Shown here: one piece after another, positions 6,215 through 53,823 of the stretch
How positions within the stretch are numbered: position 1 is the stretch's first letter
Layout: each line of letters begins with the position of its first letter
Assembly (NCBI GenBank): GCA_027492795.1
Contig: JAPUEB010000035.1
Location: 63,221 to 127,220 of the forward strand
Length of the DNA stretch: 64,000 nucleotides
Source: Chryseobacterium sp.
GTDB lineage: Bacteria; Bacteroidota; Bacteroidia; Flavobacteriales; Weeksellaceae
Direction: 5' to 3'
Program-made: the position numbers and the translations under genes
Notes under the pieces: model-generated
Database searches by the model: none
What the model was told of the DNA's origin: nothing
The model's input: only the letters and a program-made list of their open reading frames with translations

Positions 6215-6934
6215 TTACAAAACTAATCCCTCAAAATTTCTGAAGGCGAGAAGTTTTTCAGTGGTAAAACCTTCTGCAAAATCACAACCTGAAAGCCTGC
6301 CTAAATTTTGGGCGCGGTAAGTAAGACTTTCTAAAAAATCTTTCGTTGCGATTGGAGTTACAGGTTCATTGGAATTTGGATCGTAAAACTGCGTTTTGAA
6401 AGCGAGACAAGCCTCAATTTTTTTATCCATAACATTCGAAATATCTACCACAAAATCTGGTGTTATTTCTTTCCATTGAATATAATGAAAAACCTGTTTC
6501 GGACGCCAAACTTCCTGATTTTTTCCTTCTAGAGAAGTTTCTATTTTCCGAAGTCCCGACAAAAAACAAGCATCCGAAACCAATTTCGAACCTTTCCCGT
6601 GATCCGGATGACGATCTTCTATGGAATTACAAAAAACAATTTCGGGACGGTATTTTCTTATCATTTTCACGACTTTTAGCTGGTGTTCTTCATCGTTTTT
6701 GAAAAAACCATCTCTCATTTCCAGATTTTCCCGATAAGAAATTCCTAATATTTTTGATGATTCCTCTGCTTCAGCTTTACGTGTTTCGTCTGTTCCCCTT
6801 GTTCCCAATTCTCCTTTGGTAAGATCCACTATGGCAACTGTTTTTCCCTCGGAAATAAGTTTCGCAAGCGTTCCGCCACAACCAAGTTCTACATCGTCAG
6901 GATGCGCGCCAAATGCTAATATATCTACTTTCAT
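6215..6934 (-). CDS. bshB1: Bacillithiol biosynthesis deacetylase BshB1 (LmbE/PIG-L family)
   Basis: MKVDILAFGAHPDDVELGCGGT...HPDH motifs. The longer track start (TTG at 6955) falls inside a -7 box. Confidence 0.8.
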   Translation of the reverse strand: MKVDILAFGAHPDDVELGCGGTLAKLISEGKTVAIVDLTKGELGTRGTDETRKAEAEESSKILGISYRENLEMRDGFFKNDEEHQLKVVKMIRKYRPEIVFCNSIEDRHPDHGKGSKLVSDACFLSGLRKIETSLEGKNQEVWRPKQVFHYIQWKEITPDFVVDISNVMDKKIEACLAFKTQFYDPNSNEPVTPIATKDFLESLTYRAQNLGRLSGCDFAEGFTTEKLLAFRNFEGLVL

Positions 6935-6952
6935 TTCAATAAAATCTAAAAT

Positions 6953-6960
6953 CAAATATA
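6953..6960 (-). promoter_or_regulatory. -7 promoter box (TAtaTTTG on minus strand)
   Basis: Plus-strand caaatata is the reverse complement of TAtaTTTG, 19 nt upstream of the ATG at 6934. Confidence 0.4.
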
Positions 6961-7025
6961 CAATTTTAAGTAAGAAAAAATCCCAACTTTAAAGTTGGGA
7001 TTATGAAAATTTCGCAAGGGAAAAT

Positions 7026-8779: not shown

Positions 8780-9643
8780 TTACCTCATCTGCACTTCTCG
8801 TCTGTATAAATTATACTTTTGCAAACCTTCTTTTTCAACTATCATTTGCCCTAAATGAGTACATGAAAAGCGAATAAAACCATTTGCCATTCCGAAGTTA
8901 CCTTCGCTGGTAAGAAAATAAAGAACTCTGGTAAAAGGATATTGCATGGTGCGAAGATTATTGGAATCCGGCAAAAATATTTTACCTTTTTCGGTAATCG
9001 GCAAAATCTTTATAAGCGACCTAAGTGAATCCGCATCTTTGGAATAAGGCCTACTTATTGAGTTTAATGCAATCACACCTATCTTATTTGGATATCTTGA
9101 CAACTCTTTAATTATGTTTCTATTGCTATTAATAATAGAAAACTTAAGTTCTGACGGTTTTTTGTTCATTTTCTGCGCCACAAAGTTCAAATTACTGGAG
9201 TTCGTACCATCAAAAATAAACGGCTTATCATCCGAAAGCAATCCATTTTTAATTTCATCCATTGAAATAGATTCTTTAACAGAGTTTTTTGGAACAACAA
9301 AAACTACGGCATCCGCAGCAAACTTATCTGGTCTATACTTTAGATCCACCACTCTTTCAAACTCTGCAATCTCTTTTGCACTTAATTCGCGAGACATAAC
9401 GATGATTTGCGCCTTATTCTTCAACAGATCCATGAAACCAAAATCCTCTTTTTTTACCTGTACTTTCAACTTTGCATCCGGATAGTTAATCATGTAACCA
9501 TCTGCTAAAGCCTGTGTAACGCTTTCGAAGGATTCATCCGTAAGAATTGTAAGATTTCCTTGATGATAATTTTCAGGTTCTGAATTCTTTTTGCAGGAAC
9601 CGAAAAAAAGCAGAACCAGCAACAATATAATATTAATTCTCAT
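8780..9643 (-). CDS. PstS-like (PBP2) substrate-binding lipoprotein associated with the TonB/ExbBD locus
   Basis: 287 aa. Lipoprotein signal (FFGSC). Periplasmic-binding-protein-like sequence, in the conserved position downstream of tonB in Flavobacteriia. Confidence 0.6.
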   Translation of the reverse strand: MRINIILLLVLLFFGSCKKNSEPENYHQGNLTILTDESFESVTQALADGYMINYPDAKLKVQVKKEDFGFMDLLKNKAQIIVMSRELSAKEIAEFERVVDLKYRPDKFAADAVVFVVPKNSVKESISMDEIKNGLLSDDKPFIFDGTNSSNLNFVAQKMNKKPSELKFSIINSNRNIIKELSRYPNKIGVIALNSISRPYSKDADSLRSLIKILPITEKGKIFLPDSNNLRTMQYPFTRVLYFLTSEGNFGMANGFIRFSCTHLGQMIVEKEGLQKYNLYRREVQMR

Positions 9644-9830
9644 CTCGATTCTGTTTTATTCTGTAAATAGACCTTCCAATCCTAAAAACACCATAAAGCA
9701 TCATCAAACCACCTAATATGTATGCAATATTAGCTTCGAGCTGCACAAAAAACCACAGCTTCAGTATAATAAAAACACCTAGAAGAATGTAGAAAAAACC
9801 AGTTACAAGAGACAGCCAGTTAAACATCAT
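9633..9830 (-). CDS. Small two-TM membrane protein
   Basis: 65 aa with two hydrophobic helices. Overlaps the downstream gene start by 11 nt, suggesting operon coupling. Confidence 0.45.
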   Translation of the reverse strand: MMFNWLSLVTGFFYILLGVFIILKLWFFVQLEANIAYILGGLMMLYGVFRIGRSIYRIKQNRDEN

Positions 9831-9902
9831 TTATACTAAAAAATTATTAAAATTGAAAAAAGAGAAGCTATGCCTCTCTTTTTGATAATTTTGATTAAGA
9901 AT

Positions 9903-10745
9903 TTACTCGAAGTTCATTGTCAAAGGCAATCTGTATCTGGAACGTACGGGCTGTCCATCAATCTTTGCTGGTGTCCATTTGTTTTTTACAGATTTCACAG
10001 TTCTAATAGCCTCATCGTTGAAATCTCTGTTAGGTCCAGTAGCTTTCACATCAGTTATGGAGCCATCTCGCTCTACCACAAAAGATATTTCTGCTTTCAC
10101 TGTTCCTTCTCCTCCTTCCATTGCTGAACTGTCAAAATTTTCACGAATTTTCGTTCTAAAAGCATTAATACCACCTGGATATTCAGAGGATTGATCCACC
10201 TTATCATAAACCTGAGTGGTACTCACCTGCGGTTTTACTTCAACAGTTGATGTAGCCGTTCCTGTGGAAGGCGGCGGCGGCGGAGGTGTGTAACTTGGTG
10301 CCTTCACTCCTTCCTGATTCTGTAAACCTGTAGTAGTTTCCAACTGCTTTGTAATAGGCGGCGGTGGAGTTTCTACTTTTGGTGCTTTTTTAGGTTCAGG
10401 AACCACGTTTTGAATTACCTCAATCTTTTCTTCCTGTTTTGGCGGAGGTGGTGGCGGAGGTGGTTCTTCTTCTTTTGGTACTTCTAAAATTTTATCTTCC
10501 TGAAGAACATCAACAAGTTTTGCATCCACTTCCTGCTTGTTTTTTTCTGCCATTTGCTGAATTTTCATTACAACAAAAGGTGTAACTACTAATAATACAA
10601 AAAGCAAAGTGCCAAGAAGGAATGCCCTTGTTAATATTCTAGGATATTTTTTTCTTAAATCATAAGCACCATATTCCTTATTTCTATTCTCAAATACAAT
10701 CTCATCTAATGTTAGATTGTCATTGTATGCTGTATCATTTGCCAT
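9903..10745 (-). CDS. tonB: TonB family energy transducer
   Basis: N-terminal TM, proline-rich spacers (EEPPPPPPPPK, PPPPPPS), C-terminal TonB domain (..YPGGINAF...G.V.AEISFVVERDGSI..). Confidence 0.85.
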   Translation of the reverse strand: MANDTAYNDNLTLDEIVFENRNKEYGAYDLRKKYPRILTRAFLLGTLLFVLLVVTPFVVMKIQQMAEKNKQEVDAKLVDVLQEDKILEVPKEEEPPPPPPPPKQEEKIEVIQNVVPEPKKAPKVETPPPPITKQLETTTGLQNQEGVKAPSYTPPPPPPSTGTATSTVEVKPQVSTTQVYDKVDQSSEYPGGINAFRTKIRENFDSSAMEGGEGTVKAEISFVVERDGSITDVKATGPNRDFNDEAIRTVKSVKNKWTPAKIDGQPVRSRYRLPLTMNFE

Positions 10746-13149: not shown

Positions 13150-16100
13150 TCAGGAAACAATATTAATGATTTTTTTCGGAACAATAATTACTTTTTTCGG
13201 TGAATTTCCAGCCAGTTGATTCTTTACCCTTTCATCACTCATCGCTGCCTCTTCTATTTGTTTGGCATCAAAATCTGCCGGAAGCGCCAATTTGAAACGC
13301 ATTTTTCCATTGAAACTTACCGGATATTCTATTTCATCTTCCTCCAAATAAGATTCATTTAAGATTGGGAAAGGCTCAAATTCAACACTTGTTTCATGGC
13401 CAAGCAAACTCCACAATTCCTCGCAAATGTGTGGTGCGTAAGGAGAAATGATGATTGCTAAAGGTTCTAAAATTTTTCTTTTGTTGCATTTTAGCTTTTG
13501 AAGTTCGTTTACGGCAATCATAAATTGCGAAACGGAAGTGTTAAAAGAAAAATGTTCTATATCAAAAGTAAATTTCTTGATTAAAGTATGTAGAATTTTG
13601 TACTCCTCTTTCGTTGGTTCCTCATCTGAAACTGAAAACGTATCACCATCGAAATACAGGTTATAGAATTTCTTCAAAAATCCGTAAACTCCGCTTAAAC
13701 CTTGCGTGTTCCAAGGTTTTGACTGTTCCAAAGGTCCCAGAAACATTTCATATAAACGCAGACAATCTGCACCGTATTCTTCGCAGATATCGTCGGGATT
13801 GACGACGTTGTATTTGGATTTGGACATTTTTTCGACTTCTCTTTCAGTAATGTATTTTCCCTCTTCCAAAATAAATTCTGCATCTGCGAATTCCTTTCTC
13901 CAATTTTTGAATTTCTCAATATCCAATTCATCGGAAGTTCCTTTTAATAAAGAAACATCTACGTGAATTTTTTGGAAAGAATAAGTACCGGGAAATAATT
14001 CTTTATTAAAATGACTAATATTGTCTTTAAATAATATTTTTTCAATCTCACCCCATATTTCACGATCGTATTTCCCTAATACTTCATTTTGTTTTAAATT
14101 AAATTCTAATGTTTCCTGAGATAGCTCTTTACCCTTAATTATTGGTCTTACTGATTTAAAATATTTAATTAATCTAGGATCAACATATTTATTTAACACA
14201 ATATGCTCTAAAGCTCCAAAGTCATTTTCCTTTGACGGAATTCTGTAATTAACCACTAAACGATAAACAAACGCACTCATTCCCAAAATCATTCCCTGAT
14301 TAATCAATTTTTTGAAAGGCTCTTCCTGATGGATGTAACCTCTGTCCTTCAAAAACATATTCCAAAAACGGGAATACAGCAAATGTCCTGTTGCGTGTTC
14401 GCTTCCGCCAATATACAAATCAACCTGTCCCCAATAATCTGTTAAATTTTTATCCGCAAAATTTTCAGAATTTTTCGGATCCATATATCTTAAAAAATAC
14501 CACGAACTTCCAGCCCAACCCGGCATTGTGGAAAGTTCAATGGGAAATATCCTCTCCCCAACCCTCTCCAAAGGAGAGGGGGGCGGAACTACCTTTTCAG
14601 AAAGCTCGTCCCAATACCACGCTTTAGCGTTTCCAAGTGGCGGATCGCCGTCTTCGGTTGGCAAATATTTTTCAACTTCTGGAAGTTCCAAAGGAAGCGC
14701 AGAAACTGGCAAAGTGTAAGGCATTTCATCTTTATAATAGACAGGTACTGGTTCTCCCCAATATCTTTGGCGTGAAAAAATAGCATCGCGCTGACGGTAA
14801 TTCGTTGTTCCGTGACCAATTCCGCGGTTTTCTATTTCGTCAATGATTTTCGTTTTGGCGGTTTCATAATCCAATCCATCCAAAAATTCTGAATTTACAC
14901 AGACAGAATCTTTGGAATCGTACGATTCTTCCTGAATATCATTATCATTTTTAATGACATTTACGATGTCCAAGCCGAATTTTTTCGCAAATCTGTGGTC
15001 GCGTTCGTCGTGTGCAGGAACTGCCATTACAGCACCAGTTCCGTAACCCATCAAAACATAATCGGAAATATAAATTGGAATTTCTTTTTCTGTAAAAGGA
15101 TTGATTGCATAACTTCCCGTGAATGCTCCGGAAACGGTTTTCACATCCGACATTCTGTCGCGCTCGGTTTTTTTGGAAGTTTCTTCTACATATTTTTCAA
15201 CTTCCGCTTTTTGTGAATCGGTTGTTATTTTTTCAACCAAAGGATTTTCTGGTGCCAAAACCATAAATGTTGCGCCGAAAATAGTGTCGGGACGAGTTGT
15301 GAAAACGGTGATCACATTCCCCCTTTCCCCCAAAGGGGAGAGCTGTGGCAAATTATTCTGGTTGTATTGTGGTTGATTCTCTGGGTGGATTGTGGATATT
15401 TCTTGGACTTCTGATTTTTTTTCTACAAAATCTGGTCTTGATTCTAACTTTACTACAATTTTTTCGATAACATTTTCATTATCACCGATTACTTCCTCAT
15501 TTCTGAATCTAACTACTTCAAAGCCTTCAGATTCCAAAATTTTCGTTCTTTCTTCATCTGAAATTTGTTGCTCCTCCTCATCGTGGTAACCGCCATCAAC
15601 TTCAATAATTAATCTTTTTGATAAACACACAAAATCAACAATAAAATTGTCAATTAGGTGTTGTCTCCTGAATTTATAATCTAATTTTTTAGATTTTAAT
15701 TGCTCCCAAAGAATACTTTCTGCCACAGTTGGATTATCTCTATTTTCCTGTGCTTTTTTAATTAATAGTGCAGAATTATTTCCTCCTGTTAAATATCCAA
15801 ATTTTTGAGCATCACTTTTTAAATCAGCATTTTTTAAAGACTCATTATTAGATTCATTTTTTAGAGACTCAATATTAGATTCATTTTGTAGAAATTCATT
15901 ATTAGAGACATTCTCCCCTTTGGGGGAAAGGGGGAATTTAACCTGCGCTCCCATCGATTTCCCAATCCAATATTCCTGCGAATCTTTCAACGGTTGTGGC
16001 CAATCGATTTTTTGTAAACCTTGCAATAGTCTTTCAGAATAGGCGGTAATTCTCATACTCCATTGCATCATTTTTTTCTGAAAAACTGGGAAGCCGCCAC

Positions 16101-16800
16101 GTTCAGATTTTCCGTCTTTTACCTCATCATTTGCGAGAACTGTTCCTAATGCAGGACACCAATTCACAGTTGTTTCTGCTCGGAAAGCCAATCTGTAATT
16201 CAATAAAGTATCTTGTTTATCGAGTTCTGAAGCGTTGTTCCATTCTTCTGCCGTGAAATTTAATTTTTCGGTTTCTGCAGCGTGAAGATTTTCCGTTCCG
16301 TGTTCTTCAAAATATTTGATTAAAGTAGAAATCGGTTCTGCTTTATCCGTCGTTTTATTGTACCACGAATGAAATAATTCAATAAAAATCCATTGCGTCC
16401 ATTTGTAATACGATGCATCGGAAGTTCTTACTTCGCGATTCCAATCGAATGAAAAACCGATTTTTCTTAATTGTTCTTCGTATCTGGTAATATTTTGTTC
16501 GGTGGTAATTGCAGGATGTTGACCGGTTTGAATGGCGTATTGTTCCGCAGGAAGTCCGAAAGAATCGTAACCAATCGGATGCAAAACATTAAATCCTTGA
16601 TGCCGCTTAAATCTCGCATAAATATCGCTCGCAATATAACCAAGCGGATGACCAACATGAAGCCCCGCTCCTGAAGGATACGGAAACATATCCAAAACGT
16701 AGAATTTTGGTTTATCTGTTGCGTCAGAAGTTTTATAAGTTTGGTTGTCTTCCCAATATTTCTGCCACTTTTTTTCTATCTGCTGATGATTGTAGAACAT
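13150..16800 (-). CDS. leuS: Leucine--tRNA ligase, about 300 aa longer than usual because of in-frame insertions
   Basis: HIGH-type motif (GLHVGHPLGY), TTRPDT editing-domain motif, KMSKS, and a full-length continuous ORF of 1216 aa. Confidence 0.9.
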   Translation of the reverse strand: MFYNHQQIEKKWQKYWEDNQTYKTSDATDKPKFYVLDMFPYPSGAGLHVGHPLGYIASDIYARFKRHQGFNVLHPIGYDSFGLPAEQYAIQTGQHPAITTEQNITRYEEQLRKIGFSFDWNREVRTSDASYYKWTQWIFIELFHSWYNKTTDKAEPISTLIKYFEEHGTENLHAAETEKLNFTAEEWNNASELDKQDTLLNYRLAFRAETTVNWCPALGTVLANDEVKDGKSERGGFPVFQKKMMQWSMRITAYSERLLQGLQKIDWPQPLKDSQEYWIGKSMGAQVKFPLSPKGENVSNNEFLQNESNIESLKNESNNESLKNADLKSDAQKFGYLTGGNNSALLIKKAQENRDNPTVAESILWEQLKSKKLDYKFRRQHLIDNFIVDFVCLSKRLIIEVDGGYHDEEEQQISDEERTKILESEGFEVVRFRNEEVIGDNENVIEKIVVKLESRPDFVEKKSEVQEISTIHPENQPQYNQNNLPQLSPLGERGNVITVFTTRPDTIFGATFMVLAPENPLVEKITTDSQKAEVEKYVEETSKKTERDRMSDVKTVSGAFTGSYAINPFTEKEIPIYISDYVLMGYGTGAVMAVPAHDERDHRFAKKFGLDIVNVIKNDNDIQEESYDSKDSVCVNSEFLDGLDYETAKTKIIDEIENRGIGHGTTNYRQRDAIFSRQRYWGEPVPVYYKDEMPYTLPVSALPLELPEVEKYLPTEDGDPPLGNAKAWYWDELSEKVVPPPSPLERVGERIFPIELSTMPGWAGSSWYFLRYMDPKNSENFADKNLTDYWGQVDLYIGGSEHATGHLLYSRFWNMFLKDRGYIHQEEPFKKLINQGMILGMSAFVYRLVVNYRIPSKENDFGALEHIVLNKYVDPRLIKYFKSVRPIIKGKELSQETLEFNLKQNEVLGKYDREIWGEIEKILFKDNISHFNKELFPGTYSFQKIHVDVSLLKGTSDELDIEKFKNWRKEFADAEFILEEGKYITEREVEKMSKSKYNVVNPDDICEEYGADCLRLYEMFLGPLEQSKPWNTQGLSGVYGFLKKFYNLYFDGDTFSVSDEEPTKEEYKILHTLIKKFTFDIEHFSFNTSVSQFMIAVNELQKLKCNKRKILEPLAIIISPYAPHICEELWSLLGHETSVEFEPFPILNESYLEEDEIEYPVSFNGKMRFKLALPADFDAKQIEEAAMSDERVKNQLAGNSPKKVIIVPKKIINIVS
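14549..14583. repeat. Short palindromic element (CCTCTCC-n-CCCTCTCC-aaa-GGAGAGGG) inside the leuS coding frame
   Basis: atcctctccccaaccctctccaaaggagaggg. The same 32 nt with 1 mismatch occurs intergenically at 47769-47800. Confidence 0.8.
15316..15937 (-). mobile_element. TIR-bounded cassette carrying a DUF559 (Vsr-like PD-(D/E)XK) endonuclease domain, in frame within leuS
   Basis: Perfect 26-bp inverted repeats: attccccctttcccccaaaggggaga at 15316-15341 and its exact reverse complement at 15912-15937. The interior encodes ESILWEQLKSKKLDYKFRRQHLIDNFIVDFVCLSKRLIIEVDGGYHD...GFEVVRFRNEEV (about 15455-15725). Confidence 0.8.
15830..15910. repeat. 3 x 27-bp tandem repeat inside the leuS cassette
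   Basis: Units at 15830-15856, 15857-15883 and 15884-15910. They encode (E[SF]L[KQ]NESN[NI]) x3. Confidence 0.8.
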
Positions 16801-26120: not shown

Positions 26121-26236
26121 GTATTTTTTTATAAATGATGAATAATAGTTGATGAATGATGTAAAAATTTATCCCAAAAGTAAAGATTTTGAAATAAAAT
26201 TTTCAGATATTGAGAAATTAGCTTTGATGATTTTCA

Positions 26237-26290
26237 ATCCTCCAGCGACAAGTCGCAAGAGGTTAACATTGTGTCGCGCTCCGCGCGAAA
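26237..26290 (+). repeat. 54-57-nt intergenic repeat family (TCCTCCAGCGACAAGTCGC...), copy 1
   Basis: atcctccagcgacaagtcgcaagaggttaacattgtgtcgcgctccgcgcgaaa. Contains gcgac-aa-gtcgc and tcgcg-ctc-cgcga hairpins. Confidence 0.85.
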
Positions 26291-26403
26291 AATAATTGCG
26301 TTATCAATGGCGAAAAATATAAAAATATATCGAAAAAAAACCTTGTCAAGATTTGGAATCTTGACAAGGTTGGGAGAAATTTTCAAAATAGGTCTTCTAA
26401 AAA

Positions 26404-30459: not shown

Positions 30460-30627
30460 GATTACACAAAAAGCCTGAAGTTTTTTCACGAAGAACTCAA
30501 AGTGTTTTTATTCACAACCCTTTCAGCGTTTCAAATCGCTGAAAGGGTTTTTTGTTAAAGACCAAATCATAATTATTGAATTCAAGAACTCACGCAATGC
30601 AATATATTTGTGCATTAGCGGCATAAA

Positions 30628-30682
30628 ATCCTCCAGCGACAAGTCGCGAGAGGTTAACAATGTGTCTCGCTCCGTGCGAACC
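30628..30682 (+). repeat. TCCTCCAGCGACAAGTCGC repeat family, copy 2
   Basis: atcctccagcgacaagtcgcgagaggttaacaatgtgtctcgctccgtgcgaacc. Confidence 0.85.
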
Positions 30683-30863
30683 AAAAATGCTGATTTTTTT
30701 TTGTAAATTTTGTTATTCTTGAACTTCTCTGCGTTACATATGAAAAATGTCATTTTTTCAAAGAAATTACAATTCAGGCATTATTATTGATTTTCAAAAA
30801 TCAAATTCCTTATCAATTTTCTATTGATTATCAAAATTTGTTTCACTTTTAAAAAACACAATT

Positions 30864-36508: not shown

Positions 36509-37354
36509 TTATTGTTCAAGGTTTTTTGGTGGTTTGTTTTTATTTAAAATTGTCTTTGCATTTTTGGAACTTACCACTCTATTTCCTGTGCTTTCTTCCA
36601 AACGTTCACGCGCAACTTTTGCAACATCGCCTCCTTTTTTCGCAACTTCAATATTTTCATCTAAATTTTTAGGATTTACGGTTTGGGAAATATCTTTAGT
36701 GGATGCTTCCGCTAACATATTCAAAATCAATTCAGTATTTGTCATATGGTCGCGAAGATTTTCTTTTTTTAAATCTTTCAGTTTTTTATATTCTTTTGTA
36801 GATTTTCCTGACCAAGTTTTAGTGATAACATCTGTAAGAATAGCAAACTGAAGACCTTCCTTCATTCCTCTCTTCTTCCATTCATCTGTCAATTCTTTAC
36901 GAATTTCTATACTTTTCAAACGCTGATTTATCCAATTTTCTGAATATCCTAATTGCAAATATTCCTTCATTGCACGCTCTACCGTAAGTTCCGGATTTTG
37001 CATTTCATCCAATCTTTCATTGGCAATTTTCGCTAACCAAAGTTTAAATGGCTCCGCTTTTGGTGAAGGAATGGACTGAATTAAGCGAAAAAGTTGTTCT
37101 GTGTCTGCAACATCTGTTTTGTAAAATTTTCCGTCCGCAGATTTCATTTTCAGTTGACTACAATTTGTAGTCAACTCACTTCCTTCCTTTTTTAATCGGG
37201 TTTTTAGTACGCTCCAGTATTTTCGTGCATTTGGGCTTTCTGTTAAAACCTCAATTACATCAACGATAGAAAAATACCATTTTTCCTGTTCGTCATCCCA
37301 AATCGTACGAACTTTTTTGGATTCAAAAAGTTGTATTGCGTTTTTTTGTGTCAT
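36509..37354 (-). CDS. dinD: DinD-like DNA-damage-inducible protein with N-terminal Bro-N domain
   Basis: 281 aa. FESKKVRTIWDDEQEKWYFSIVDVIEVLTES...LFRLIQSIPSPKAEPFKLWLA. Confidence 0.7.
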   Translation of the reverse strand: MTQKNAIQLFESKKVRTIWDDEQEKWYFSIVDVIEVLTESPNARKYWSVLKTRLKKEGSELTTNCSQLKMKSADGKFYKTDVADTEQLFRLIQSIPSPKAEPFKLWLAKIANERLDEMQNPELTVERAMKEYLQLGYSENWINQRLKSIEIRKELTDEWKKRGMKEGLQFAILTDVITKTWSGKSTKEYKKLKDLKKENLRDHMTNTELILNMLAEASTKDISQTVNPKNLDENIEVAKKGGDVAKVARERLEESTGNRVVSSKNAKTILNKNKPPKNLEQ

Positions 37355-38085: not shown

Positions 38086-40533
38086 TCAAATCTCAAATTT
38101 CAAATTGTTTAAATAATAATTCAATTGCCCGAAACTGATATTCTCATCATTTGGAGAGAGTTTTTCGTGAAAATGTAAATTAAATTTTTCGCCCAAAACG
38201 TCAATCGCCATATCTACTAATAATGCATTTTGCCAAACGCCACCGGAAAAAGCCAAGTGTTTTTCCTCTGTCACACTGAGCTTGTCAAAGTGTCTATCGA
38301 CAATTTTTTCAATAAATTTAATTAAAGTGTTGTGAAAATTTAGTCCGATTTCTCCGGCGTTTTTTCCTGAAAGTTTTTCATCTAAAATTTTATCAAAAAG
38401 TTTTTTTGTCGGAAGATTTTCAGAAGTTTCGTTTTCTAAATAATCAGTTAATCTGTGAACATCTGTGCAAAATTTTTCCTGAGAAATTTTCTCCAACCAC
38501 ATTGCAGATTCTCCTTCAAAATAAATTGGTTTTTCATAGCCCAAAACAAAAGCAACAGCATCAAAAAAACGTCCCATTGATGAAGTTTTGATTTCCGATT
38601 TATCAATGAGATTGGTGTAGATTTTCCATTCGTTTTCGTCAAAGAATTTTTTAAAAAAAATTAGATTTCGCACCTTCGGCGCTCCGCAATTCACGCCCTC
38701 ATCTTTCATTGGGCTTTGCCCAATGCTGTTGATTTCCGCCACTTCGTGGCTCAAATTGTGTTCATCAACCTTTTTGTTAAAGAAAATTGAAAGTGCGGAA
38801 ATTTTTGGTGTTTTGGACATTTTATCGCCTAAAATCCAAGCGAAATTTTCTAATTGTGAGGTTCGTGTTATTTTTGGATGTCGCACCTTCGGCGCTCCGC
38901 AATTCTCGTCCTCAATTTTCATTGGTCTTTGCCCAATGCTGTTGATTATCGCCACTTTGTGGCTGTTTTCTAAACTTTCAATTTCTGAATTTTCATACAT
39001 AAAAAATTCGCCGCCCCAAATTTCTGTTTCAGTTCCGAAACCGATGCCGTCCCAAATTATACCGAGAACTTTTTCTTTTTCCCAAAGTTTTTTTTCGCCT
39101 AAAATGGAAGCGAAATGTGCTTTGTGATGTTGGATTTTTTGGTTGCTCACAGATTTCCACAGATTTCCACAGATTTTTTGATTTTCATATCGTGGATGTA
39201 GGTCTGAAAGAATAAGATTTGGTTGAAAATTGAAAATTTTTTGATATGATTTTATCGTGTTTTCAAATCTTTCGTAGGTTTCAAAATTGGCCAAATCGCC
39301 GATGTATTCTGAAATATAAACGTGATTGTTTGGAACAACGGCGAACGTGTTTTTCAAATCTCCACCCAAACATAAAATTTTATTCTTTTGATAATTTTTT
39401 TCTGACAATTCATCCGCGAAAAAATAGTTTGGCGCAAAACCTCGTGAACGTCGGAAAATGATTTTTTGTTGGTGTTTTGGAGAAAATTTTATCACAGAAT
39501 CATCTTGTGGATGTTGAATTTCCAAAGTATTGTGCAAGAAAAAATCGGCGATTTTCCATAAAATAGTTTCGGCTTCTTCTGTGGTGGAACAAATCGGCGA
39601 ACCGTGAAAATTTCCGCTGGTTGCGATGAGCGGTTTTCCGAAAACTTTGGAAATGAGTTTCAGCGTTCCGGAATACGGAAACATTGCGCCAATCGTGTTC
39701 ATATTTGGCGAAATTTCTTCTATTGCCAAATCTTTTTTGTCTTTGATTTTTGTAACGATAATCGGACTTTCTGAAGACTTGAAATGCTGGATTTGTAGTT
39801 CGGAAACTTCTAAATATTCCTGCATTTTTTCAATTCCTGAAAACAAAACCGCGAAAGGTTTTGTTGGTCTGCGTTTGCCTTTTCGCAGTTCTGAAACGGC
39901 TTCGGGATTGGTTGCATCACACATTAATAAATAGCCTGCGGTATTTTTCAAAGCAATAATTTTCCCTTTGGCTAATTCTTCGGCTAATTTTTCAAAAATT
40001 TGTTTGTTTGTGCCTTTGAAATCGTTTCCCTGATGGTCTTTTAACCAAATTTGAATGCCACATTTCGGACAGGAATTGGTTTGGGAATGAAAACGAACGT
40101 CATCAGGATTTTTATATTCTTCCAAACAATTTGGACACATTTTGAACACTTCAATCGCCGTGTTTTCACGTTCAAAAGGGAATTTTTTCGCGATGGAATA
40201 ACGTGGTCCACATTGTGTGCAAGTCGTGAAAGGATAAAAATAGCGGGGATTTTTCTCGTCAAAAATTTCGGTTTCGCAATTTTCGCAGGTTGCAAAATCG
40301 GGCGTCAATGGAATGTCAACAACGATGTCTTTTTTCGTGGGTTTGATGAAGAAATTTTCAAAAACTTCGGTGGTTGCTATATCTTTGATTTCGGAGAAAA
40401 TGATTTCGGAAGATTTGGGTTTTCGTTCGTGAATTGCTTTGAAAAATGCGTAAGAACCTTCGCCTTGACAAATAATGATGACGCCCAATTCGTCATTTGA
40501 AACGTAACCTTTCAGTCCGTATTCTTCTGCCAA
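38086..40533 (-). CDS. hypF: Carbamoyltransferase HypF. The coding frame actually stays open to 40612, and three repeat insertions lie in frame
   Basis: Zn-finger CxxC pairs (CENC..CTQCGPRY, CPNC..CPKCG), YrdC-like and Kae1-like domains. The acylphosphatase motif GRVQGVGFRPF lies upstream of the track's TTG start. Confidence 0.85.
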   Translation of the reverse strand: MAEEYGLKGYVSNDELGVIIICQGEGSYAFFKAIHERKPKSSEIIFSEIKDIATTEVFENFFIKPTKKDIVVDIPLTPDFATCENCETEIFDEKNPRYFYPFTTCTQCGPRYSIAKKFPFERENTAIEVFKMCPNCLEEYKNPDDVRFHSQTNSCPKCGIQIWLKDHQGNDFKGTNKQIFEKLAEELAKGKIIALKNTAGYLLMCDATNPEAVSELRKGKRRPTKPFAVLFSGIEKMQEYLEVSELQIQHFKSSESPIIVTKIKDKKDLAIEEISPNMNTIGAMFPYSGTLKLISKVFGKPLIATSGNFHGSPICSTTEEAETILWKIADFFLHNTLEIQHPQDDSVIKFSPKHQQKIIFRRSRGFAPNYFFADELSEKNYQKNKILCLGGDLKNTFAVVPNNHVYISEYIGDLANFETYERFENTIKSYQKIFNFQPNLILSDLHPRYENQKICGNLWKSVSNQKIQHHKAHFASILGEKKLWEKEKVLGIIWDGIGFGTETEIWGGEFFMYENSEIESLENSHKVAIINSIGQRPMKIEDENCGAPKVRHPKITRTSQLENFAWILGDKMSKTPKISALSIFFNKKVDEHNLSHEVAEINSIGQSPMKDEGVNCGAPKVRNLIFFKKFFDENEWKIYTNLIDKSEIKTSSMGRFFDAVAFVLGYEKPIYFEGESAMWLEKISQEKFCTDVHRLTDYLENETSENLPTKKLFDKILDEKLSGKNAGEIGLNFHNTLIKFIEKIVDRHFDKLSVTEEKHLAFSGGVWQNALLVDMAIDVLGEKFNLHFHEKLSPNDENISFGQLNYYLNNLKFEI
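38668..38751 (-). repeat. 84-bp palindromic element, copy A, in frame in hypF
   Basis: tcgcaccttcggcgctccgcaattcacgccctcatctttcattgggctttgcccaatgctgttgatttccgccacttcgtggct. Encodes SHEVAEINSIGQSPMKDEGVNCGAPKVR. Confidence 0.85.
38881..38964 (-). repeat. 84-bp palindromic element, copy B, in frame in hypF
   Basis: About 90% identical to copy A and in the same orientation. Encodes SHKVAIINSIGQRPMKIEDENCGAPKVR. Confidence 0.85.
39146..39175. repeat. CACAGATTT-type tandem repeat inside hypF
   Basis: ctcacagatttccacagatttccacagatt. Related to the arms of the inverted repeat at 40889-40980. Confidence 0.7.
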
Positions 40534-40608
40534 ATTGAAAATAAATGGGCGAAAACCTACACCTTGAACGCGCCCTGAAATATGGATTTCTGTTGTTTTG
40601 ATGATAAT

Positions 40609-40755
40609 TTTTTAAACGCAAAGAGCGCAAAGATTTTTTTAAATGTTTGAAAATATTTTTAAGTTCGCAAATCGTTGATTCGCTGATTCCTCTAAAAATA
40701 ATAAAAATTTCAGAGGCAAAGATTCATCTAAAGATGAATTGCAATGTTCGCAAAG
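40609..40755. repeat. CGCAAAG-family element, copy 1 (abuts the hypF 5' end)
   Basis: ttttttaaacgcaaagagcgcaaagattttttta...caaagattcatctaaagatgaattgc..cgcaaag. Both ends are shared with 41507-41606. Confidence 0.75.
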
Positions 40756-40765
40756 ATTTTTCTTT

Positions 40766-40873
40766 TGTCATTCTGAATGTAGCACAGCGAAATGAAGAAT
40801 CTCTTAAATAGTAGATTTTTCACTCCATTTCTGAACTTCGTTCGTAAAACCACGTTTTATGTTCAGAATAACA
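40766..40873. repeat. GTCATTCTGAA-family MITE-like element, copy a
   Basis: Ends tgtcattctgaa ... ttcagaataaca. The interior gcgaaatgaagaatct is shared with copy b. Confidence 0.7.
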
Positions 40874-40983: not shown

Positions 40984-41571
40984 TTAATTTTTTCTAATTT
41001 CATTAACCAATTCCAAAACCATTTCCGTGACTTTAGGGATGGCTGCAGCGACTTTCGGGGATAATTCTAAATACATCGGTTCCATTTTGGAAATCGTGAC
41101 GGTGTAAAGATAAATGTTCGGCATTTTTTCCATAAAGGTCAGAATATCAACCATATCTTTGAGCCCGAAATTGTGTCCGCTTAATGAAACGGGGAAATCT
41201 TCGGAAAATTTTGGTTTTAAAAGCGTGATGCTTCCTTCTTCTTTTCCGTCCATTGTTGCATCTACAATGATGACGTGTTCGTGACTTTCAATGTAGGGAA
41301 CCAAAGAAAAACCGCCAGTTCCCCCGTCCATAAAAGTTATTTTTTCGGGAAATTTTGTGGTGTCCAAATTTTTGATGAATTGAACGCCAATTCCTTCGTC
41401 GCCCATTAAATAATTGCCGATTCCGAGAATGAGGATGTTGTTTCCGTCGGAATGGAAGGAATCTGTGGTGTATTGAAATGTTTCTGTGTTTTTTTCCAAT
41501 TCTATATTTTTTAAACGCAAAGAGCGCAAAGGTTTTTTTATAATTTCTTGAAAATATTTTAAGATAAACAA
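40984..41571 (-). CDS. hyaD: [NiFe] hydrogenase maturation endopeptidase (HyaD/HupD family). Start uncertain
   Basis: ILILGIGNYLMGDEGIGV and ..IIVDAT.. motifs. The N-terminal about 25 aa of the track ORF are a translation of the CGCAAAG repeat. Confidence 0.8.
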   Translation of the reverse strand: MFILKYFQEIIKKPLRSLRLKNIELEKNTETFQYTTDSFHSDGNNILILGIGNYLMGDEGIGVQFIKNLDTTKFPEKITFMDGGTGGFSLVPYIESHEHVIIVDATMDGKEEGSITLLKPKFSEDFPVSLSGHNFGLKDMVDILTFMEKMPNIYLYTVTISKMEPMYLELSPKVAAAIPKVTEMVLELVNEIRKN

Positions 41572-41606
41572 AGATTCATCTAAAGATGAATTGCGAAGAC
41601 CGCAAA
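41507..41606. repeat. CGCAAAG-family element, copy 2 (overlaps the hyaD 5' end)
   Basis: ttttttaaacgcaaagagcgcaaaggttttttta...caaagattcatctaaagatgaattgcgaagaccgcaaa. Confidence 0.75.
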
Positions 41607-42002
41607 ATTTTATGTTTTAAATCTACAAAAAATCTACTACAAAAAGTCCGCAATTTTGAACGGTAAGTTTGTCGCAGCCCGACTTGAGCGGAGCTCTTTT
41701 TGTGGAGCGTAGCGGAACAAAAAAGCGGGAGCGGAAGGCATAAATGAAAAGGAAGCGAAGGCTTTCTTGAAATTTACGAACGTAGTTCTTGCTGCCCAAA
41801 TAAAAATTAAATCTAATGCTAGTTTTAAGATTGAACTTCCCGATAAATCGGGACAGGCTCTACGGAGTTCCTTTTTCTGCTATATCATTATTCCTACACA
41901 GATATTGTTCCTACGGAACAAAGCGTTTTTGAAAAATTAGTAAAATCTGAAATTTAAAATTCCCCGAAATGTTGTGTTTCAGGGAATTTGAAAAGGTTAA
42001 TT

Positions 42003-47768: not shown

Positions 47769-47800
47769 ATCCTCTCCCTAACCCTCTCCAAAGGAGAGGG
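47769..47800. repeat. Short palindromic element, twin of the one inside leuS
   Basis: atcctctccctaaccctctccaaaggagaggg matches 14549-14580 at 31 of 32 positions. Confidence 0.8.
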
Positions 47801-53766: not shown

Positions 53767-53823
53767 GTCCTCCAGCGACAAGTCGCAAGAGGTTAACAAT
53801 TGTGTCGCGCTCCGCGCGAAACC
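53767..53823 (+). repeat. TCCTCCAGCGACAAGTCGC repeat family, copy 3
   Basis: gtcctccagcgacaagtcgcaagaggttaacaattgtgtcgcgctccgcgcgaaacc. Confidence 0.85.

Follow-up and report, generated by a model that had tools for sequence, protein, structure and literature searches.

We analyzed a 64,000-nucleotide stretch of a Chryseobacterium sp. contig (JAPUEB010000035.1, positions 63,221 to 127,220; hereafter, the window) in which hypF, the gene for the carbamoyltransferase HypF, contains two copies of a short palindrome-rich element. Comparison with related alleles confirmed that both segments are foreign, palindrome-rich DNA inserted in frame. Each is a unit of about 90 nt composed of three short G+C-rich stem-loops, called here hairpins C, A and B, whose loops read GAA or AAA on one of the strands. 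We consider it likely that both copies arose by insertion and belong to a low-copy family of units resembling repetitive extragenic palindromic (REP) sequences, with the whole five-step history set out below, and the units in hypF were probably moved by a Y1/HUH transposase whose gene lies at the methionine synthase gene metH in related genera.

The copy at the C-proximal insertion site of hypF (copy A, site 2) occupies 38658..38753 on the minus strand and reads ..SHEVAEINSIGQSPMKDEGVNCGAPKVRN.., and that at the N-proximal site (copy B, site 1) occupies 38871..38966 on the same strand and reads ..SHKVAIINSIGQRPMKIEDENCGAPKVRH... A covariance model of the unit, R1, scored copy A at 98.7 bits (E = 6 × 10−19, model positions 1-95) and copy B at 94.6 bits (E = 5 × 10−18), and a profile search with nhmmer returned copy A with E = 5 × 10−26. 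A first-pass annotation, made from the letters alone, had described two in-frame copies of 84 bp here, and their placement, shared orientation and roughly 90% identity held up: a repeat finder matched 38661-38751 to 38874-38964 at 89% identity over 91 nt, in the same orientation and 213 nt apart, and the 24-mer CGCACCTTCGGCGCTCCGCAATTC, common to both copies, occurs exactly twice in the window, at 38669 and 38882 on the plus strand, with none expected from 100 shuffles of the window. Translation of both copies indeed follows the minus-strand frame of hypF and yields the peptides SHEVAEINSIGQSPMKDEGVNCGAPKVR and SHKVAIINSIGQRPMKIEDENCGAPKVR stated in the annotation; three of the six frames of the unit are open. 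The proposed extent needed revision, since the 84-nt cores are separated by 8 substitution steps (~90% identity) but the true homologous core is about 91-95 nt. The conserved part, bounded by AGCCAC and GAAATC, spans about 91 nt, and the remainder of the insert is A/T-rich and resembles the adjacent target. The G+C content of the 84-nt cores is 56% and 50%, compared with 36% for both the window and hypF, and it lies at 48-56% over 38658-38753 and 38871-38966.

The clearest evidence for insertion came from a survey of alleles in the best 120 Cloacibacterium-type HypF clusters (74-100% identity), a list ranked by similarity to the double-insert query, so that the class proportions are biased. 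Neither insert was present in 62 clusters; 34 carried only the C-proximal insert (site 2, +33 residues), 18 only the N-proximal insert (site 1, +37 residues), and three, this window included, carried both. One further cluster (P0036) is a recombinant in which the segment between the sites is duplicated, and two were left unclassified. The DNA agreed wherever we compared it, with an empty allele at locus L007 (C. normanense), a site-1 allele at L008, a site-2 allele at L009 and the recombinant at L010. Empty, single and double alleles thus occur within one genus, which bears out the first-pass view of the two segments as foreign. Its view of the intervening segment as native HypF sequence also stands: this stretch (..PKITRTSQLENFAWILGDKMSKTPKISALSIFFNKKVDEHNL.., lying with an A/T-rich flank that partly duplicates the target at 38754..38870, minus strand) is kept in 120/120 clusters and duplicated in P0036/L010.

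Aligned with the empty allele L007, the site-2 insertion covers 38658..38768 (minus strand; 111 nt or 37 codons, with placement ambiguous by a few bases) and the site-1 insertion covers 38859..38969 (minus strand; 111 nt or 37 codons, in a single-gap alignment). Most other strains have a site-2 insert of 99 nt. The site-1 insert consists of the core and about 20 nt resembling the neighboring target, and the empty sequence NQKMERVAQL can be aligned there to SEIESLEN on the left or to HPKITRTSQL on the right, with the gap placeable on either side of the core. We also weighed a non-mobile origin, in which the segments would belong to native HypF or would have arisen by internal duplication of it. 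Direct repeats in a single gene, and the existence of the tandem-type rearrangement P0036, are what such an origin would predict, but the flanks of the copies are not duplicated as a 213-nt tandem unit. The existence of empty alleles, the absence of the segments from solved HypF structures, the full-length homologs beside Y1 genes in other genera, outside hypF, and a G+C content 15-20 points above that of the gene together refute this explanation, to which we assign next to no probability.

The structure of the unit emerged from its hairpins. Both hairpins quoted in the first-pass annotation are real, although their number was incomplete, as a third, GCGCC-GAA-GGTGC, is present. In copy A, reading the minus strand, hairpin C (GCCAC-GAA-GTGGC on the hypF-sense strand) lies at 38738..38750, hairpin A (CATTGGGC-AAA-GCCCAATG) at 38707..38725, and hairpin B (GCGCC-GAA-GGTGC, followed by the conserved GAAATC) at 38670..38682; the counterparts in copy B are at 38951-38963, 38920-38938 and 38883-38895, respectively. 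Hairpin A of copy B carries one G/A mismatch, and hairpin B of copy A has a G-T wobble on the hypF-sense strand only. GAAATC is conserved 3' of hairpins C and B (on the other strand, GATT ahead of the hairpin), and by analogy this tag is reminiscent of the short tags of REPs.

We tested the three hairpins for covariation in 14 units drawn from hypF and from the Y1 loci described below. Overall, 96% of 250 cells were paired and 8 of the 18 pairs varied on both sides; 0/500 shuffles reached the observed covariation score, and slid controls were only 24-42% paired. Pairing reached 98.5% in helix 1 (hairpin C), where three of five pairs showed changes on both sides, 92.9% in helix 2 (hairpin A), for which other loci carry the compensatory variant CATAGGGT/ACCCTATG in place of CATTGGGC/GCCCAATG, and 98.6% in helix 3 (hairpin B), where pair 77-85 occurs as CG, GU and UA and pair 79-83 as UA and CG. 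A further series of both-sided changes runs from GCCCT/AGGGC through GCGCC/GGTGC to GGTCT/AGACC. On the hypF-sense strand we counted 16 G-T cells and 3 A-C cells; this excess of G-T wobbles identifies the hypF-sense strand as the one that folds, as single-stranded DNA or RNA. The GC skew of the window was too weak (−0.02) for assigning a lagging-strand template. When hairpin decay was compared between the copies in hypF and those flanking the Y1 gene, no clear difference was seen.

The link to a transposase came from scanning 241 million metagenome records for hairpin A, which returned seven loci. Three were hypF itself. At another three (L011, L015 and L017) hairpin A is intergenic and adjoins a GCCCT-TTC-AGGGC hairpin; judging from their shared flanking sequence, these appear to be one orthologous intergenic locus. 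At the seventh, L012, hairpin A lies beside a 150-residue gene whose product matches PF01797 Y1_Tnp (E = 9 × 10−25) and exceeds the cut-off of the NCBIfam IS200/IS605 model. The protein carries the motifs DHIH (HUH), WQ and YIINQEEHH (Y motif), and in motifs, length and taxa it corresponds to the subclass 1.2 that Quentin et al. 2018 (PMC6006769) describe. The homologs listed are nearly all 150 residues long, 70-100% conserved, and come from Chryseobacterium, Kaistella, Bergeyella and Amniculibacterium. Wherever the flanks suffice, in at least three genera, the Y1 gene sits between the S-methyltransferase and the pterin/B12 parts of metH (the flanks of one locus, L026, are too short to show this position).

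Using a flank profile built from the hypF copies alone, we found full-length units directly upstream (plus orientation) and downstream (minus orientation) of the Y1 gene at L018, L020 and L022 (E = 1 × 10−11 to 1 × 10−14), and likewise on both sides at L024 and L026 (E = 2 × 10−11 to 9 × 10−8), such that inverted flanking units were present at all five distinct Weeksellaceae Y1 loci. Model R1 scored the Y1-flanking units at 63-97 bits; those of L024 and L026, which had been left out of model building, scored 63-82 bits. Alignment shows that the units in hypF and those flanking Y1 genes are homologous across their whole length. A conserved, syntenic HUH/Y1 gene bracketed by inverted units is the signature of REP-type systems, in which a domesticated tyrosine transposase mobilizes the repeats by working on folded single-stranded DNA, and we take it as the most likely source of the copies in hypF. 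This connection was missed in the first-pass annotation, which had likened the copies to Rickettsia palindromic elements (RPEs); the unit is REP-like instead.

Several further observations were made at these loci. In L018, L020, L022 and L024, the entire gap between the S-methyltransferase gene and the rest of metH, at about 9800-10650, is taken up by the Y1 gene with its hairpin units, and methionine synthase is split exactly at the position of the Y1 element. In L022 (Chryseobacterium sp. SC28), seven tandem truncated units with an 88-nt period lie upstream of the Y1 gene at 9317-9951; these array units contain hairpins C and A and lack B. At 3114-3222 of L015, hairpin B is interrupted by a small palindrome, CTGCCC..GGGCAG, which suggests nested insertion of hairpin modules.

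We next asked how widely the unit occurs. Run unfiltered over the whole window, model R1 gave a best hit beyond the two copies of 14.5 bits (E = 0.47); with nothing else above that score, the window holds exactly two copies, both in hypF. The first-pass annotation had named absence of the 84-mer from the rest of the genome as a refuting outcome; over the 64 kb covered here, no copy lies outside hypF. The flanks of nine related loci (~20 kb each) yielded no further unit beyond the Y1 neighborhood; around the Y1 genes there was a single weak extra hit (L024, 13315-13392). Searching the opposite-strand frames gave no candidate protein sharing three 5-mers among 5.8 billion clusters, and the sense peptide returned, among 1.84 billion representatives, only a HypF fragment and two chance repeat proteins (IEGVNCAADQV-type). 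Hairpin A had no match in viral contigs.

A scan of genome contigs with the 20-mer GCACCTTCGGCGCTCCGCAA, which holds the strain-specific variant CGAPKVR where most alleles have CEAPKVR, found five loci, namely four chance matches in high-G+C metagenome-assembled genomes (MAGs) and L004. L004 belongs to a Bacteroidales MAG from the rumen and has two related units, inverted and intergenic, at 6767-6985 (32 and 37.5 bits with model R1), in which a 38-nt stretch equals the 3' end of copy A at 35/38 positions (GGGCGTGAwTTGCGGAGCGCCGAAGGTGCGA..). This match implies that the hairpin-B module exists outside Flavobacteriia.

These counts bear on the parallel drawn in the first-pass annotation, by which the unit would belong to an RPE-like, high-copy family of palindromes in Flavobacteriia with a habit of in-frame insertion into protein genes. 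In its favor, the copies are read in frame, are rich in palindromes, vary among strains and sit in loops, and other in-frame palindromic inserts, of different families, occur in leuS in the same window. The likeness to RPEs therefore survives as far as coding palindromes in frame are concerned, but not as a high-copy family at home in genes: there are two copies in 64 kb, the flanks of related loci hold none outside the Y1 neighborhood, hairpin A occurs at only seven loci in the metagenome records, and the protein searches found the peptide in HypF only. The unit, moreover, is three separate short hairpins rather than one long whole-element palindrome. We regard such a family as very unlikely and retain the reading of a low-copy, REP-like unit.

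We then examined how the host gene accommodates the inserts. The hypF open reading frame (ORF) runs over 38086..40533 on the minus strand from a TTG start, with the frame open upstream to 40611. Its product has the Pfam domains zf-HYPF, Sua5_yciO_yrdC, HypF_C and HypF_C_2 in the expected HypF order (acylphosphatase, Zn-finger, YrdC-like, Kae1-like), and its closest relatives are HypF proteins of Cloacibacterium. The structures 3vth and 4g9i of the Protein Data Bank align with it over the full length (E = 1 × 10−105 to 1 × 10−110). The alignment with 3vth falls into two blocks, residues 2-519 and 623-804, between which 103 residues replace about 30, whereas HypF of the empty allele aligns continuously with the solved structures. 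The first-pass annotation had held that homologous peptides at both positions in distant taxa would speak against its claim, and in the solved-structure HypF proteins we found no counterpart of either insert.

Site 1 aligns to a turn between two strands of 3vth (GAEILVCDL^KSFERIAHL). At site 2, HMMER gaps open in both 3vth and 4g9i, and the E. coli chain (3tsp) is longer there too. By these alignments, site 1 is a beta-hairpin turn and site 2 a length-variable loop, both within the Kae1-like domain; the first-pass annotation had proposed such mapping as a test for surface loops. At the other end of the gene, the codon at 40600..40602 (minus strand) is ATC where other strains have an ATG start (MKTTEIHISGRVQGVGFR..), and the acylphosphatase motif GRVQGVGFR is intact and in frame upstream of the first listed start, the TTG at 40533. 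Either this hypF uses a non-canonical start, or the protein lacks its first ~20 residues.

Compared with four other alleles, hypF as a whole showed a dN/dS (ratio of nonsynonymous to synonymous substitution rates) of 0.08-0.13 at a dS of about 1.0-1.2, and the gene is under strong purifying selection. Across the 28 insert codons, pN/pS was roughly 0.4-1.0, and pS was 0.2-0.37 in pairs with any synonymous change, well below that of the gene. The insert peptide evolves almost neutrally while its DNA keeps the hairpins; low synonymous divergence of the inserts together with intact stems fits either a structural constraint on DNA or RNA, or recent spread.

A further reading is that the inserts have been co-opted, with hairpins acting in the hypF mRNA (stability, pausing or attenuation of hydrogenase maturation) or loops adding a function to HypF. 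Co-option would explain why insertion recurs in this one gene, at two independent sites, and it fits the 16-18 of 18 stem pairs that are intact in the window copies, the G-U wobbles on the mRNA-sense strand and the low synonymous divergence. We nevertheless find it improbable, as 62/120 clusters lack both inserts and the insert peptide is nearly neutral. The folding z-scores of the copies are modest (−1.5 to −2.9), the hypF copies in L009 and L013 have some stem mismatches without compensation, an Rfam search gave no match at or near the hypF units, and no intrinsic terminator was found on the hypF sense strand, the only terminator-like sites being on the antisense strand. The inserts would instead be passengers in HypF.

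The copies also bear marks of recombination. Both window copies carry CGGAGCGCC (CGAPKVR) and share ATCAAC, and the 3' third of copy B is site-2 type sequence (CGAPKVR) where other strains have CEALKER at site 1. The two-copy alleles L013 and L014 keep distinct ends, with CEALKER in the site-1 copy and CEAPKVR in the site-2 copy. Since both window copies end in CGAPKVR, they have been homogenized, most simply by gene conversion. In P0036/L010, an allele found on seven contigs, the left flank of site 2 and the 5' part of its element are joined to the 3' part of the site-1 element and its right flank, and the native segment of 43 residues is duplicated. Such a product is expected when an allele with site 2 only and one with site 1 only pair at the element and cross over.

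Combining these observations, we propose the following history. A Y1 enzyme acting on folded single-stranded DNA, or repair copying from a unit, would have put one unit at each of two hypF sites 129 nt apart in the Cloacibacterium lineage. The survivors would be those insertions whose net length is a multiple of three (99 or 111 nt, that is, the core and a few duplicated target bases) and which also fall in the one open sense frame. They may have persisted because the two sites, the turn of a beta-hairpin and a loop of variable length in the Kae1-like domain, tolerate a hydrophilic loop of 33-37 residues, leaving HypF still working. The alleles would then have spread and recombined among strains, giving the empty, single, double and duplicated-segment forms, and in this strain gene conversion would have made both copies alike.

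A number of observations weigh against this history, and particularly against simple transposition. Two hits 129 nt apart in hypF and none in ~124 kb of other sequence are unlike random insertion, and the copy number is very low. The flanks look like diverged target duplications of 10-30 nt, irregular and significant at window site 2 only, where IFFNKKVDEH and IFFKKFFDEN gave a similarity score of 14 that 0/500 shuffles reached. IS200/IS605-type enzymes are not known to duplicate the target on insertion, and an origin in repair or template switching fits these flanks at least as well. The 64-kb window holds no Y1 gene, the link to which is seen in related genera only, and no named Cloacibacterium appears among the 120 listed Y1 homologs. 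The tetranucleotide composition of L024 is compatible with Cloacibacterium (r = 0.87-0.92) but not discriminating, so its Cloacibacterium-like character is only suggestive. The low synonymous divergence of the inserts could reflect recent spread in place of structural constraint. Finally, an AlphaFold2 model from 35 close homologs had a mean pLDDT (predicted local-distance difference score) of 35 and was unusable, and the surface-loop reading rests on the alignments.

Much of this would be accommodated if break repair, template switching or ectopic gene conversion had brought the units into hypF by copying one that lies elsewhere (at the metH locus, for instance), after which the first hypF copy seeded the second. 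We treat such copying as a serious rival, though distinctly the less probable account. Flanks that resemble duplicated target, at site 1 and at window site 2, would follow from it, as would the short distance between the sites; there is demonstrable activity of gene conversion and of unequal crossing-over among the copies, and the unit family is low-copy everywhere examined. On the other hand, flank similarity in the remaining alleles was not above shuffles (p = 0.07-0.37) and involves A/T-rich, low-complexity sequence. The insert ends are the ends that the unit has at Y1 loci (AGCCAC...GAAATC), as precise excision and insertion would give, and inverted units around a conserved HUH enzyme are a classic sign of enzyme-mobilized repeats. 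We continue to favor movement of the units by the Y1 enzyme.

Other inserts and repeats are present in the window. The gene leuS (ORF 13150..16800, minus strand) encodes a leucyl-tRNA synthetase (LeuRS) of 1216 residues, in which an in-frame DUF559 endonuclease domain (window positions 15316-15940; PF04480, E = 6.6 × 10−34, residues 348-452) precedes the editing domain directly. This insert of about 200 residues falls between residues 239 and 243 of Thermus thermophilus LeuRS, and a perfect terminal inverted repeat of 25 nt (TTCCCCCTTTCCCCCAAAGGGGAGA) encloses the block, which has the look of an endonuclease cassette, bounded by terminal inverted repeats and in frame in an essential gene. A palindrome, CCCTCTCC-AAA-GGAGAGGG, occurs identically at 14562-14580 within leuS and at 47782-47800, where it is intergenic and just after a stop codon. 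The leuS copy is in frame, with the peptide PPPSPLERVGER and a gain of eight residues over T. thermophilus LeuRS. This is a second palindromic family, unrelated to the hypF unit, with one coding copy. The leuS inserts, which belong to different families, show that hypF is not the only gene of this genome to carry selfish DNA in frame, in the spirit of the first-pass comparison with Rickettsia.

Closer to hypF, this strain alone has a gene with a Bro-N domain (36509-37354, minus strand) between hypD and the gene for FKBP. This slot of the hyp cluster is variable, being empty in L007 and L010 and occupied by nikR and a TonB-dependent receptor gene in L008 and L009. The Bro-N ORF holds a perfect palindrome with an 11-bp stem (37152-37176). 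We considered a link between the hairpin unit and the neighboring Bro-N gene, as L004 also has one, but rejected it because the two Bro-N proteins are unrelated. Upstream of hypF and at the 5' end of the hycI ORF, respectively, 40607-40766 and 41506-41618 share two repeat blocks of 81-84% identity, in which CGCAAAG motifs and a hairpin, ATTCATC-TAAA-GATGAAT, are found. With 195 residues, compared with 171 in other strains, the hycI ORF (40984..41571) as listed may start inside one of the repeat blocks. A G+C-rich repeat of 33-64 nt with short internal palindromes (..CCTCCAGCGACAAGTCGCAAGAGGTTAACA..TGTGTCGCGCTCCGCGCGA..) occurs at 26236-26299, 30627-30690 and 53768-53800; in a perfect-hairpin scan none of its three copies lay inside a long ORF, and it had no Rfam match.

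The three-hairpin unit offers a candidate DNA substrate for a widespread Y1 subclass that was reported without one, and makes the activity of the enzyme directly testable. The empty, site-1, site-2, double, converted and unequal-crossover forms of hypF make up a natural allelic series in which the entry and persistence of selfish palindromic DNA in coding sequence, the tolerance of HypF loops and intragenic recombination can be studied. Together, the hypF and leuS inserts suggest that coding palindromes are not confined to reduced genomes of the Rickettsia type. The inserts also shift the length of HypF by 33-74 residues between strains, and can mislead annotation and clustering. More broadly, and tentatively, the Y1/HUH proteins of subclass 1.2 in Bacteroidota, which have been described as orphan relatives of IS200 that lack cognate DNA structures, may act as the enzymes of an unrecognized REP-like system, made up of a metH-linked gene that has been domesticated and a modular single-strand DNA substrate with three hairpins; such a system would be active enough to give in-frame insertion polymorphism in hypF, and possibly prefers this stretch of the gene.

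We compared the unit and its candidate enzyme with known mobile systems. In IS200-type insertion sequences the ends lie on the same strand rather than inverted, and insertion sequences are multi-copy and not syntenic. The system described here shares with IS200/IS605 a Y1 HUH transposase with adjoining hairpins that fold preferentially on one strand, and differs in that the Y1 gene is fixed beside metH across genera and the flanking units are inverted. Nor does the unit resemble a miniature transposable element with inverted repeats (MITE), as its two ends (AGCCAC... and ...GAAATC) do not form an inverted repeat and the duplications in its flanks, irregular at 8-27 nt, for the most part do not exceed shuffles.

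RPEs are high-copy families, and RPE-1 is a long palindrome over the whole element; to our knowledge, RPEs have no known cognate transposase. As with RPEs, the hypF units are inserted in frame in a functional protein gene, to judge from its low dN/dS. They differ in numbering two over 64 kb, in comprising three short hairpins each and in having a candidate for the cognate enzyme, and in the sequences covered the unit has neither the high copy number nor the many affected genes of an RPE. A study by Di Nocera et al. 2013 (PMC3733652) describes RPE palindromic DNA in frame in functional genes, where the added peptide is tolerated, and in-frame MITEs are reported from Coxiella (PMC5896051).

The closest likeness is to REP sequences, with their composite forms BIME (bacterial interspersed mosaic elements) and REPIN (REP doublets forming hairpins), and their REP-associated tyrosine transposases (RAYT, or TnpA-REP) in Enterobacteria, Pseudomonas and Stenotrophomonas. 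In both cases, short G+C-rich palindromic units fold on one strand, a conserved HUH/Y1 gene is flanked by units in inverted orientation, that gene is syntenic across genera and does not hop like an insertion sequence, and a short conserved tag adjoins the hairpins. The enzyme here, however, belongs to subclass 1.2 (IS200-like, class 1) and not to the class 2 RAYTs, and with the NCBIfam model REP_Tyr_transpos it reached 16.6 bits where the cut-off is 80. Three different hairpins in a fixed order make up the unit, about 90 nt in all, and its tag is GAAATC (GATT on the other strand) in place of GTAG or CGTC. Copy number appears very low compared with hundreds per genome, and the many dispersed copies typical of REPs are lacking here, with none in the window besides hypF and seven metagenome loci.

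In the sections concerned, Di Nocera et al. (PMC3733652) report REPs inside known protein genes, encoding 20-30 amino acids and sometimes present twice per ORF at close or distant sites, with no function shown. The GTAG- and CGTC-tagged families discussed there are abundant in genomes, mostly of Proteobacteria, Opitutus and Rickettsia, and Bacteroidetes are listed only among the phyla holding CGTC repeats; those sections contain no Flavobacteriia example and no allelic series like that of hypF. Subclass 1.2 is described by Quentin et al. 2018 (PMC6006769) as a group of Cyanobacteria and Bacteroidetes that is low-copy, does not behave as an insertion sequence and is generally without terminal secondary structures. 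The Y1 protein found here agrees with that subclass in its motifs (DH[IV]H, WQ, Y---Q--HH), its length of ~148-150 residues, its apparently low genomic copy number and its taxa, and differs in that all five Weeksellaceae loci have inverted three-hairpin units on both sides. REPs and MITEs in frame have already been reported, and the phenomenon itself is therefore known; what is distinct in this case is the combination of a subclass 1.2 enzyme, a three-hairpin unit, its tag, a low copy number, a Flavobacteriia host and an unusually complete allelic series.

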